Positions 11,087 to 55,553 of a DNA stretch of 64,000 bases are shown here, in pieces. The stretch lies in assembly GCF_057098645.1 (NCBI RefSeq), contig NZ_CM169472.1; one strand, given 5' to 3'. Position 1 is the stretch's first letter; each line of letters starts with the position of its first letter. Both the position numbers and the translations under genes were made by a program. Below the pieces are notes generated by a model. It saw only the letters and a program-made list of their open reading frames with translations, made no database searches and was not told the origin of the DNA.

Positions 11087-12125
11087 TTATGAGTATTTAA
11101 CGGATGATGCTCCCCAGGGAACATTTCTTATGGGCCAACGGCATTTCTTACTGTAGTGCTCCCAAAACTGCTTGTCGTAACGATAACACGCTTCAAGTTC
11201 AGCATCCGTTAACTTTCTGCGATAGCAGCAGATATGCCAGTAAAGAAATCCCATTAGACTATTTTTTTGATAATCTTCTTCGCTTTCGAACAACTCGTGC
11301 GCCTTTCGAGAGGCAAGCATTATATAATGCCAGGCCAGTTCTTCTTCAATTGTCCCGTTTTGAAAAGCTGTGCTTGATATCGAGATCATCCATGATAATT
11401 CCGCCGCCCATATTAGCTTCGCCGAGGATTTACTGGAGCTATGATTAGCGCAATCAGAGATATAGTCTGAGGGAAAAACAGCAAATTTATTCAACAAGGC
11501 GATGACCTGCTCTGGAGCTTCCTCCATGTTCGCTTTAAAGGTATTGGCTCCATGGTCGCCAGAAAGAAAATGCTCCATTAAGGCACAATAACTTTCGCTA
11601 TCTTCGATACCCCATTGATCCTCTAAAGACTCGCGCCTTTTACTTATGATATCGATCGAGTCAAAAAAGCACATGATATTGGAAGGTATCTTTGCCAGGT
11701 TCAGGCTTTCGCGGCCAGAACTCCAGCGTTTCAGACCATTGCTTATGATAGAATCGATAAGGTGCGATCAATTGTAGCGCCTGTAATTTCTCGATACTGA
11801 GCGGCTCAATACCTTTAGCCTGATAATAATGCAGTTGTTCTTTTTTTGCTTTAAAACCGGCCCGAACAATAAGCCCCATCATAATTAATAGATAAAGAAA
11901 AGAGCATCCCGCGGTAATCAGGCCTCTTTCATTCAAACCGTTGGATGTTATCGCTGCGAATACAAACATTCCAGCGACAACACATGTTAAATACCCCCCC
12001 CACTTACAAAGCAGCATGGCCTTATTTTCTTTAATCATCCGTTCAAAATTACTATTAAATATTTCCCAGCCATTAAAAGAATACTTCTCGCTCCCAGGAT
12101 GGTTTTGTAATAAAACTTTTTTCAT
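11087..12125 (-). pseudogene. ynjI: ynjI (DUF1266 inner membrane protein) split by a +1 frameshift in an A6/T6 run
   Basis: Two overlapping minus-strand ORFs (11661-12188 and 11087-11674) jointly cover one protein; frames switch at the homopolymer 11663-11668; removing one base gives a continuous ~346-aa ORF. Confidence 0.6.
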
Positions 12126-12252
12126 CACATTCCCTGTTATTACATACTTTAGAGGCGATAATTTTATCCATGCAAAAAAAATATCCAACGAATTTTCTTG
12201 ATCCGCTGGATATTTCAGAATATGACTCGAATAGCACGAAAGATTCGCTCGC

Positions 12253-14214
12253 TTACGCTATCGCCCCGCTTCCGGCTTCATCTGCTGGCGGACTTTTTTT
12301 CGCACTACGTTTACGCGGTGCAGCCTTTTTCTTATCAGCACTGCCACCACTGCCCGGAGCCACAATGCCGCGAAACTGCCGCACCGGAGTACGTTTGGCT
12401 TGATCAATAAGCTGATATAGCGTCCCCACCAGCGGCTGCATAAAGTCCTGATAGCGACACTGCTTTTCGCTGATTTGCGTCAGCACCGATTCCCAGTGCG
12501 CGGTCATGTCCGGTCGCGTAGCCATTTCTGGCAGCGAATGGAATAACGCTTTTCCGGCGTCGGTGGAGTGGATATAGCGCCCTTTTTTGGTCAGGAAACC
12601 ACGCTTGAACAACAGTTCAATAATCCCGGCACGGGTTGCTTCTGTCCCCAGACCATCGGTCGCACGAAGGATCTTTTTCAGATCTTTGTCCTGCACAAAG
12701 CGCGCGATCCCGGTCATTGCCGAAAGCAGTGTTGCATCGGTAAAATGGCGCGGCGGCTGGGTTTGCCGCTCTACCACTTCACCTTTTTCACACAGCAACT
12801 CATCGCCTTTCGCCACCACAGGCAATGGCGTACCGTCGTTTTCTTCATCGAGCTCTTTGCTGCCTAACAGCGTGCGCCAGCCTGCTTCAGCAAGAAAACG
12901 CGCTTTAGCGACAAATTTGCCTTTGGCAATGTCCAGTTCGATAACACACTTGCGGAACACCGCATCCGGGCAGAACTGCATCAAATACTGACGGGCAATC
13001 AGGTTATAGACCTTCGCTTCGTTCTCCGTCAGGTTGATCGCAGAACTCCGTGCGGTCGGAATGATGGCGTGGTGCGCATCGACCTTTTTGTCATCCCAAC
13101 AGCGGTTGCGTATATCTGGATCTACCACTGGCTGCGGCAACAGATCCGGTGCATGAACGCTGATGGCATTCATCACCGCGTGGCGTCCGGCAAAATGTTC
13201 TTCTGGCAAATAGCGACAATCAGAACGCGGATAAGTGATTAGCTTGTGCGTTTCGTACAGTTTCTGGCAGATATTAAGCACGTTCTGCGCGCTCAGACCA
13301 AAACGTTTTGCCGCTTCAATCTGCAACGCCGAAAGCGAAAAAGGCAGCGGCGCGGATTCTGATTCCCGTTTATCGTTATAGCTGGTGACAATAGCCGGTT
13401 GACCACTAATACGGTTAACCACATGCTCCGCCAGTGGACGATGTAACAAGCGCCCTTCTTCATCCTGGTACGGTTCACACGCTTCGCTCGGTTGCCAGAT
13501 AGCGGTAAACCGCTCATCGGCAGGTGTCACGATATGTGCTTTGACTTCAAAGAAGTCTTTCGCCACGAAGTTTTCAATCTCTTCATCGCGGCGCACCACC
13601 AGCCCGAGCACGGGTGTCTGTACGCGTCCCACGGAAAGTACGCCCTGATAACCGGCATTGCGACCGAGAATGGTATACGCACGGGTCATATTGATGCCGT
13701 ACAGCCAGTCGGCACGCGCTCGCGCCAGCGCAGAAACGCACAATGGCACAAACTCACTGTTGGACCGAAGACGGTCGATTGCCCGCTCAACCGCCTGCGG
13801 GTTCAGGTCGTTTATCAAGCAACGCTGCACCTGCTGGCGCTTTTCCGGTGCCAGTTGCAGATAGTCCAGCACTTCATCCACCAGCAATTGCCCTTCACGA
13901 TCCGGGTCCCCGGCGTGAACGATTTCGCTGGCTTCATGCAAAAAGCGTTTGATGACGTTAAGTTGTTTGGTCACGGAGGGTCGGGGCTGTAATTGCCACT
14001 TTTCCGGGACAATCGGCAAATCCGCAAGATTCCAGCGCGCATAGCGGCTGTCGTAGGCGTCTGGCTGCGCCTGCTCAAGCAGGTGACCGATACACCAGGT
14101 CACCACCTGACCATTACCGCACTCGATAAAGCCATCGCCTTTCCGGTGCGGTTTGGGCAGGACATCAGCAATGGCGCGCGCCAGACTCGGTTTTTCGGCA
14201 ATAAACAACCGCAT
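12253..14214 (-). CDS. topB: DNA topoisomerase III
   Basis: 653 aa from internal ATG ([19 protein letters not shown]...), Toprim/Topo IA features; follows selD on the same strand. Confidence 0.95.
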
Positions 14215-14218
14215 TGAA

Positions 14219-53692: not shown

Positions 53693-53711
53693 GGTCAAAC
53701 CAGTTTATTTG

Positions 53712-53738
53712 AACCGCGTCACTGACGCGGTTTTTTTA
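53712..53738 (+). terminator. Rho-independent terminator of dmlA
   Basis: AACCGCGTCA-CTGACGCGGTTTTTTTATT: hairpin plus T-run 20 nt after the stop. Confidence 0.6.
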
Positions 53739-53942
53739 TTCGTTCTTTGCAGTTAATAACCTGCGTCATTTCACCTTTTATTGTTTCCGTTTCGTGTTTT
53801 ATGGCTTTCCGTATTCTTAATTGTTTAATTTATGTAACATGCAAATAATCAATTTGTTAAACACAACATACAACTCATTACCCTGCAAATAATTACAACT
53901 GGCAAAAGCCAGAGACGGGCTTTTATGCCCAGGAGATGACTC

Positions 53943-55553
53943 ATGATGAGCAATGTTAAGAAAAAAGATGTGCCGCTGATAAGCATCAGCCTGGTGGCCA
54001 TTCTTTTCATCGCAGCTGCATTAAGCCTTTTCCCACAACAATCGACCGACGCGGCCAACGCAATATACACTTTTGTTACGCGTACGTTAGGTTCCGCAGT
54101 ACAGGTATTGGTTTTGCTGGCAATGGGACTGGTGATTTATTTAGCCACCAGTAAATACGGCAATATTCGTCTTGGCGAAGGAAAACCGGAATACAGCACG
54201 CTCTCCTGGCTGTTTATGTTTATTTGTGCCGGTTTAGGTTCTTCTACGCTTTATTGGGGGGTTGCTGAATGGGCCTATTATTATCAAACGCCTGGATTAA
54301 ATATCGCACCGCGTTCACAACAGGCACTCGAATTTAGCGTCCCTTACTCCTTCTTCCACTGGGGCATCAGCGCCTGGGCAACTTATACGCTGGCCTCATT
54401 AATCATGGCTTATCACTTTCATGTGCGGAAAAACAAAGGTCTGAGTCTTTCCGGCATTATTGCCGCGATTACCGGCGTTCGCCCGCAAGGCCCATGGGGA
54501 AAACTGGTTGATTTGATGTTCCTGATCGCCACTGTCGGCGCACTGACTATTTCCCTTGTTGTCACCGCAGCAACCTTTACTCGTGGACTTTCCGCACTGA
54601 CCGGTTTACCCGATAACTTCACCGTGCAGGCATTTGTGATCCTGCTTTCCGGCGGCATTTTTTGCCTAAGCTCATGGATTGGTATCAACAACGGTTTGCA
54701 ACGTCTGAGCAAAATGGTTGGCTGGGGCGCGTTCCTGCTGCCATTACTGGTGCTGATTGTCGGTCCAACCGAATTTATTACCAACAGCATCATCAATGCC
54801 ATCGGCCTGACCACGCAAAACTTCCTGCAAATGAGCTTATTCACCGATCCGCTTGGCGATGGTTCATTTACCCGCAACTGGACCGTTTTCTACTGGCTGT
54901 GGTGGATCTCATACACCCCTGGCGTAGCAATGTTTGTCACCCGCGTTTCCCGCGGTCGTAAGATTAAAGAAGTTATCTGGGGACTGATCCTCGGCAGCAC
55001 CGTCGGTTGCTGGTTCTTCTTCGGCGTAATGGAAAGCTATGCCATTCATCAGTTTATCAATGGCGTAATCAACGTCCCACAGGTGCTGGAAACACTGGGC
55101 GGCGAAACAGCTGTACAGCAAGTTCTGATGTCGTTGCCAGCCGGTAAATTGTTCCTCGCCGCATACCTGGGCGTGATGATTATTTTCCTTGCCTCGCATA
55201 TGGATGCAGTGGCCTAAACCATGGCGGCGACCAGTACGCGTAATCTCCAGGAAGGTGACGATCCTGACCGTGGGCTGCGTCTTTTCTGGTGCGTGGTGAT
55301 CACTCTGATCCCGCTTTCCATCTTGTTTACCGGTGCTTCGCTGGAAACGATGAAAACCACCGTCGTGCTCACAGCCCTTCCCTTCCTCGTCATTTTACTG
55401 GTGAAAGTCGGCGGATTTATTCGCTGGCTGAAACAGGATTACGCCGACATTCCGGCTCATCAAGTTGAACATTATCTCCCGCAGACACCGGTTGAAGCCC
55501 TGGAAAAAACACCAGTGCTCCCTGCGGGAACCGTATTCAAAGGCGACAACTGA
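53943..55553 (+). pseudogene. yeaV: BCCT-family transporter gene interrupted by an in-frame TAA at 55215-55217
   Basis: ORFs 53943-55217 and 55221-55553 are in the same frame; the downstream ORF encodes the conserved final TM segments; the stop sits where BCCT transporters have a conserved Tyr (CaiT SYTLAMS), consistent with TAT/TAC to TAA. Confidence 0.6.

Follow-up and report, generated by a model that had tools for sequence, protein, structure and literature searches.

Three gene lesions in a 64-kb backbone stretch of an O145:H28-type Escherichia coli, probably acquired stepwise on a young branch

We analysed a stretch of 64,000 nucleotides (hereafter the window; contig NZ_CM169472.1 of assembly GCF_057098645.1), which covers the Escherichia coli chromosomal backbone from xthA to yoaB and in which three genes, ynjI, yeaE and yeaV, are disrupted. 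The disruptions are best read as the outcome of ordinary, stepwise and near-neutral mutation that turned dispensable genes into pseudogenes on a young branch of O145:H28 type, related to food-borne strains of that serotype, with a horizontally circulating insertion sequence (IS) of the IS21 family providing the last step, and we assign this reading a probability of roughly 0.82. The first event would have been the C>A change that put a stop codon into the BCCT transporter gene yeaV and that an entire sub-clone now has; a 2-bp deletion in ynjI, present in few isolates, would have followed; and the transposition of the IS into yeaE, found in this genome only, would have been the third event. The clustering of the lesions would reflect the make-up of the region, which is made up almost entirely of non-essential ydj, ynj, yea and yoa genes that tolerate such mutations, on a branch probably too young for purifying selection to have acted. 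Such a history would amount to normal strain-level pseudogene turnover and not to a genome-reduction programme. It is nothing new in kind.

Three lesions in an O145:H28 background

For every probe taken from the window, the best matches among complete genomes were enterohaemorrhagic E. coli (EHEC) of O145:H28 or O145, with at least 99.9% identity (closest, 99.97%). Judged from the 64-kb window, which is the evidence on the source strain, the strain belongs to the O145:H28 (EHEC) clonal group. Strain RM12761 (EHEC O145:H28; NZ_CP007133.1, about 2,144,045-2,205,400) is collinear with the window and was used as the reference; the identity is 99.96-99.97% over window positions 1-33144 and 35784-64000, and the differences in the approximately 61 kb of homologous sequence amount to 19 mismatches, one 2-bp gap and one insertion of 2,639 bp. 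Outside ynjI, yeaE and yeaV, all gene lengths across these 61 kb are those of RM12761, and the differences there are missense or synonymous only. No pseudogene is marked in the homologous stretch of RM12761 (annotated with the NCBI Prokaryotic Genome Annotation Pipeline, PGAP), of C325 or of O157:H7 strain PV15-279, and intact ynjI, yeaE and yeaV are present in RM12761, C325 and O157:H7. The initial annotation of the window, which was made from its sequence, had described three independent lesions of three different mechanisms surrounded by intact neighbours. This description was borne out by the comparison, with a 2-bp deletion, an IS insertion and a nonsense mutation found where it had placed them. 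Each of the three lesions truncates or splits a conserved domain.

In yeaV, a C>A change at 55217 converts the TAC codon of Tyr425 into TAA, and the new stop removes positions 414-485 of the 485 positions of the BCCT profile. An in-frame ATG (55221) lies one codon past this stop and opens a 110-aa open reading frame (ORF) over the last BCCT helices. In every related assembly, gene callers annotate this ORF as a gene of its own, and the tail could in principle still be translated.

In ynjI, two bases present in RM12761 are gone after window position 11666, where AAAAGGAA on the plus strand is reduced to AAAAAA. On the coding strand, CTTCCTTTT becomes CTTTTTT with the loss of nucleotides 460-461 of the coding sequence (CDS), and the reading frame shifts at codon 154. 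The 346-aa YnjI is split into two ORFs, one of 154 aa (11661..12125) and the other of 195 aa (11087..11674), and the DUF1266 domain (Pfam, residues 167-338 of the intact protein) is wholly separated from the N-terminal membrane part. The deletion also places a previously out-of-frame ATG (11674) in frame with DUF1266; the two fragments overlap by 14 nt, and there is no obvious Shine-Dalgarno sequence upstream of this ATG. Both ORFs could in principle still be translated.

In yeaE, the IS breaks the gene after nucleotide 548 of the 855-nt CDS, inside the Aldo_ket_red domain (residues 17-272 of the intact protein). Because the inserted sequence is flanked by an exact duplication of the target site, the insertion is not an assembly artefact. 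The reading frame of the 5' yeaE fragment runs on past the junction and forms a fusion ORF of 216 aa (35681..36331) with the IS, for which an exact-protein look-up in the public assembly collection gave no match.

The sharing of these lesions was examined among 5,426 complete RefSeq E. coli genomes. A 61-mer centred on the yeaV stop codon had 2,225 matches in this set, each with at least one mismatch; the ynjI deletion was common to none of the genomes, and the best full-length matches to its 61-mer all showed the 2-bp gap. The IS site in yeaE was likewise found in none of the 5,426 genomes. The species can do without these genes: ynjI is absent from 35% and the yeaVWX region from 19% of complete E. 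coli genomes, and several further genomes have a frameshifted ynjI. The earlier description of the affected genes as peripheral was correct. The functions lost would be those of YnjI, of the methylglyoxal reductase YeaE, and of YeaV-dependent substrate uptake for the carnitine monooxygenase encoded by yeaW and yeaX. The yeaV stop thus probably impairs substrate supply to the carnitine-to-trimethylamine pathway throughout the sub-clone.

Public assemblies and the order of the lesions

The exact 424-aa truncated YeaV was found on at least 24 contigs of independent assemblies, including Logan SRR17991919 and NCBI GCA_032490215.1 (36 indexed blocks of the public assembly collection contain the product, and 24 contigs were inspected). 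The two fragments of YnjI occur together on the short-read Logan contig ERR3905718_28, which is common to five samples. The relatives differ from the window by 1-2 single nucleotide polymorphisms (SNPs) per 20 kb. Because the exact products occur in independent assemblies, the ynjI and yeaV lesions are genuine and clone-inherited.

These occurrences, the truncated YeaV in at least 24 assemblies and the YnjI fragments in a five-sample contig, refute the suggestion of the initial annotation that the two point lesions might be sequencing artefacts. If the frameshift and the stop were errors of this one assembly, their absence from all 5,426 complete RefSeq genomes would be expected, and the ynjI deletion does sit in a short purine/pyrimidine run, where an error might be suspected. 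Against this, gene calls on independent assemblies of other runs give exactly the same truncated products, and the deletion takes GG out of AAAAGGAA with no change in the length of a homopolymer. Moreover, the gap in ynjI is the sole indel that separates the window from RM12761 over 61 kb, which shows that the assembly is not error-prone, and low assembly quality was rejected as an explanation on this count. We consider sequencing or assembly error to be extremely improbable.

The contig ERR3905718_28 also crosses the yeaE site, which allowed the order of the ynjI and yeaE events to be addressed. Its coordinates rise as those of the window fall (the orientation was taken from two retrieved loci), and its first base would correspond to window-equivalent position 112,520 if the contig were collinear with the window, and to 115,166 if it were without exactly 2,646 bp, the length of the IS plus the duplication. 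The far end of another contig, SRR17991919_12, lies at window-equivalent 115,166 and coincides with the end of ERR3905718_28 only without the 2,646 bp. The missing match to the yeaE-IS fusion ORF in the collection points the same way. Since the contig ends coincide only in this case, there are isolates which have the ynjI frameshift and do not have the IS; note that the absence of the IS in ERR3905718 was derived by this contig-coordinate arithmetic, in place of a direct contig-break test. As a contig with the ynjI frameshift lacks the IS, the lesions are, by this arithmetic and the sequences compared, nested: the yeaV stop marks a broad sub-clone, the ynjI deletion a few isolates within it, and yeaE::IS this genome only.

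In the ansA-pncA intergenic region, the window has a G>C change at position 19929 that no other sequence compared has, not even the closest public relative (the ERR3905718 contig), and this change and the IS set the window isolate apart from its sequenced relatives. No exact-protein match to the lineage-specific A41V allele of CdgI was found in the collection, probably owing to the choice of another start codon by the gene caller. The lesions matter little beyond strain typing, for which their nested distribution makes them convenient clonal markers of an O145:H28-like sub-lineage.

Lesion density and selection in the region

The region consists almost wholly of ydj, ynj, yea and yoa genes, of peripheral or unknown function, and a sister clone has also accumulated lesions in it. 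The 2010 O145:H28 outbreak clone carries four in this stretch, namely ynjI::ISEc20, a stop at Q145 of a SIMPL-domain gene, a leuE frameshift and a stop at Q259 of dmlR, and all four are identical in RM13514 and the independently sequenced RM12581. Like those of the window, the pseudogenes of RM13514/RM12581 are young, of mixed mechanism (IS, nonsense and frameshift), located in non-essential backbone genes and private to a sub-clone. The outbreak clone has its own, independent ynjI knockout, and otherwise its lesions are in other genes and at other positions than those of the window. Unlike in the RM13514/RM12581 comparison, the lesions of the window are nested across public isolates, which points to stepwise acquisition.

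Backbone samples from elsewhere gave about one lesion per 100-160 kb. How far the density departs from chance depends on the baseline chosen. The probability of finding three or more lesions in 45 kb was 0.003 when calculated from the C325 backbone sample, and 0.04 when calculated from five comparator copies of the region itself (with 0, 0, 0, 4 and at least 1 lesions). An EHEC genome contains about 250 pseudogenes, and with this number the probability rises to 0.34. None of these values is compelling, because the window had been picked for its apparent enrichment and there are about 120 such windows per genome. The stretch does seem lesion-prone, and we infer that this comes from the large tolerated mutational target which the ydj, ynj, yea and yoa genes present. 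Pseudogenes that cluster locally where y-genes are so abundant are no evidence for genome reduction, given the four lesions of the outbreak clone in the same place.

The differences were polarised with RM12761, RM13514 and, as the outgroup, O157:H7 PV15-279. The window and the two O145:H28 strains have 716 differences from O157:H7 in common, and the private SNPs in the approximately 61 kb number 13 in the window, 5 in RM12761 and 10 in RM13514. The 13 derived SNPs of the window (nine of them G:C>A:T transitions) comprise six missense, one nonsense, three synonymous and three intergenic changes, and none of them is common to a fourth close genome, C325. When the three terminal branches were pooled, the ratio of nonsynonymous to synonymous changes was 19:4, which corresponds to a dN/dS (the ratio of nonsynonymous to synonymous substitution rates) of about 1.4 with a site ratio of 3.27. 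Purifying selection is not yet visible in the region at the depth of these three O145:H28-type branches. Very young clonal branches show such dN/dS values before purifying selection acts.

The numbers of inactivating events were compared with a selection-free expectation. Indels arise at about 0.1 of the rate of base substitutions, and this ratio was combined with the share of nonsense changes calculated for these genes, 4.9%. For IS insertions we used a ratio to substitutions of 1:3, as mutation-accumulation lines of E. coli gain them about one third as often as base substitutions (PMC5009759). For 13 SNPs, the expectation was approximately 0.56 nonsense mutations, 1.1 frameshifts and 4 IS insertions. 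The observed numbers were 1, 1 and 1, so that inactivating events are not in excess on the branch of the window.

Several observations weigh against a history of near-neutral turnover. Three lesions in about 64 genes is a density roughly ten times that of the C325 backbone sample, which is a small one (one pseudogene in 161 kb), and the seven lesions of two sub-lineages in one 45-kb stretch are more than would be predicted from 100 kb elsewhere in RM13514; these densities leave room for a regional or selective effect beyond dispensability. Of the 23 coding SNPs that fall on the three terminal branches, 3 are nonsense mutations, where 4.9% would be expected (P = 0.10). Finally, the loss of function itself is, for all three genes, deduced from the sequence.

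The initial annotation had proposed that the lesions mark a lineage undergoing reductive evolution, either Shigella-like or host-restricted, in which a growing IS population and relaxed selection would erode peripheral metabolism genome-wide and of which the window would be a representative sample. The local density is close to what such a process produces, as 3 of about 64 genes (4.7%) approaches the proportion of at least 5% of CDS that are pseudogenes in the Shigella reference genomes (PMC7373316), and a dN/dS near 1 fits relaxed selection. The mechanisms of loss (IS, nonsense and frameshift) and the peripheral metabolic targets are also those of reduction in Shigella and enteroinvasive E. 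coli (EIEC), and the IS of the window is intact, recently acquired and 100% identical to copies that reached 29 in the chromosome of strain GF60. However, the phylogenetic placement, which the initial annotation had itself named as a check, groups the window with EHEC O145:H28 and not with Shigella/EIEC or a host-restricted clade; the nearest genomes are ordinary EHEC O145:H28, from which the branch has diverged by 13 derived SNPs per 61 kb. Nor is an IS expansion like that of Shigella/EIEC visible in the 64 kb of the window. The median number of IS copies is 194-286 in Shigella populations and 9-49 in non-EIEC E. coli lineages (PMC7373316), and by our own arithmetic, with a genome of about 4.5 Mb assumed, the Shigella medians predict 3-4 copies in 64 kb, whereas the window contains one. 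This copy is private to the isolate and not found in its closest relatives, it belongs to a type that is not in the characteristic Shigella set (IS1, IS2, IS4, IS600, IS911 and others), and with one IS to 13 SNPs the window falls short even of the selection-free ratio of 1:3 for K-12. The lesions of the window are recent and mostly private rather than fixed throughout a lineage. In addition, RM13514/RM12581, which is not a reduced lineage, matches or exceeds the window in local lesion density, and the window had been selected for its apparent enrichment. With EHEC relatives, one IS in 64 kb and a ratio of lesions to SNPs like that of unfiltered mutation, the proposal finds no support in the tests that the window allows, and we regard an early reductive lineage as very unlikely.

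Stepwise near-neutral turnover was also weighed against the possibility that some of the losses were selected, that is, that inactivation of ynjI and of the dmlR-dmlA-yeaVWX neighbourhood is advantageous in the niche of O145:H28, which would explain the repeated hits. Within O145:H28, ynjI has been hit in three independent ways, by the 2-bp deletion of the window, by G8>G9 in the RM9872 group and by ISEc20 in RM13514/RM12581. The second of these affects a G8 homopolymer (Table 1), which is in frame in the window and is found as G7, G9 or G10 in other E. coli genomes, so that ynjI is frameshifted at the same tract in unrelated strains too. Of 39 full-length RefSeq matches sampled at even spacing, five had a ynjI length other than 1041 bp, and the four of these that were checked are all annotated as frameshifted and all differ at the G tract (G7 in two, G9 and G10). 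Separate hits in one gene neighbourhood are also seen in yeaV of the window and dmlR of RM13514. As for yeaE, an unrelated urinary isolate, CDF6 (NZ_CP158429.1), carries the same 2,639-bp IS at a different site, in the 5' end of the gene about 0.5 kb from the site in the window and with its own 7-bp duplication (ACATCGC); this is the sole other yeaE-associated copy among the 5,426 genomes.

On the other hand, a slippage-prone G8 tract in a gene that is missing from 35% of E. coli provides a mutational hot spot and weak constraint, which together explain the recurrence. The promoter of ynjI needs BglJ-RcsB and is partly repressed by H-NS/StpA in K-12 (PMC3950696), which suggests that expression of the gene is rare. 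The numbers involved are tiny, the genes were looked at post hoc, and the variants of the G tract could be either real slippage, of a contingency-like kind, or homopolymer errors of long reads. Selection for the losses in the O145:H28 niche is, in our judgement, unlikely. The more general idea that slippage switches ynjI on and off in E. coli, or that losing the gene is favoured, draws on the variable G tract and on the three O145:H28 knockouts, of which the 2-bp deletion is irreversible, and seems quite unlikely; if it held, the lesion cluster would in part record selection on envelope or peripheral functions in the EHEC niche and not pure drift.

The IS21-family element and features of the window

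The assignment of the inserted element to the IS21 family, made in the initial annotation, was confirmed by the profiles of its two proteins, its ends, its terminal repeats and the 7-bp target duplication. IstA matches the NCBIfam profile NF033546 with 284.7 bits (cut-off 160) and Pfam Mu-transpos_C_2 with 72.1 bits (cut-off 27), and its score of 32.1 bits for Pfam rve is marginally under the cut-off of 32.6. IstB matches NF038214 (IS21_help_AAA) with 257.8 bits (cut-off 200) and Pfam IstB_IS21 with 205.7 bits. The termini of the IS are TG...CA, and the left end has five direct repeats, each about 20 nt long, whose inverted partners lie at the right end. Target duplications of 4-8 bp are usual in the IS21 family. 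As in IS21, IS100 and the ISSso4 group, consecutive genes on the same strand encode a DDE transposase (istA) and an AAA+ ATPase (istB), and the element agrees with this family in its TG...CA ends, repeated end motifs and short target duplication; structurally, nothing differs. Identical copies are named 'IS21-like element ISSso4 family' in RefSeq, and it is on these product names that the name of the window element rests.

Copies 100% identical over the whole element (query 1-2639) are present on unrelated chromosomes and plasmids, many of them poultry-derived. A full-length copy occurs in 225 of the 5,426 complete genomes (about 4%), often on a plasmid, and the poultry-associated strain GF60 has 29 chromosomal copies and four plasmids with the IS. 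This distribution suggests that the IS circulates horizontally and may have arrived recently, and by its sequence it looks complete and active. The coordinates of the element, of the fragments of yeaE and of the other features are summarised in Table 1.

Table 1. Coordinates of the disrupted genes, the insertion sequence and associated features in the window
Feature	Position	Strand	Basis
ynjI pseudogene (DUF1266 inner-membrane protein)	11087..12125	-	Alignment to RM12761
G8 homopolymer within ynjI (CDS nt 125-132)	11994..12001	-	Position computed from the start codon at 12125
Interrupted yeaE (methylglyoxal reductase gene)	32831..36331	-	Collinearity with RM12761 yeaE
yeaE 3' fragment (last 314 nt, left target-duplication copy included)	32831..33144	-	Collinearity with RM12761
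Target-site duplication CACCAGG (7 bp), left copy	33138..33144	.	Junction sequence
Complete IS21-family insertion sequence (2,639 bp)	33145..35783	+	End-to-end copies elsewhere, terminal repeats, junctions
istA, IS21-family transposase (511 aa)	33377..34912	+	NCBIfam NF033546 transpos_IS21
istB, helper AAA+ ATPase (251 aa), directly downstream of istA	34929..35684	+	NCBIfam NF038214
Target-site duplication CACCAGG (7 bp), right copy	35784..35790	.	Junction sequence
yeaE 5' fragment (first 548 nt, 182 codons)	35784..36331	-	Alignment, ORF list
yeaV pseudogene (BCCT-family transporter, 536 codons)	53943..55553	+	Alignment to RM12761

Among the derived missense changes of the window, three sites (12851, 6375 and 9123, taken jointly) affect TopB, YnjD and the overlapping pair NudG/YnjH. 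The change in the housekeeping gene topB, R455L, falls in a charged, loop-like stretch of the protein, and G125R of YnjD is located outside the LSGGQ signature. One SNP lies where nudG and ynjH overlap and gives M126I in NudG and P90L in YnjH.

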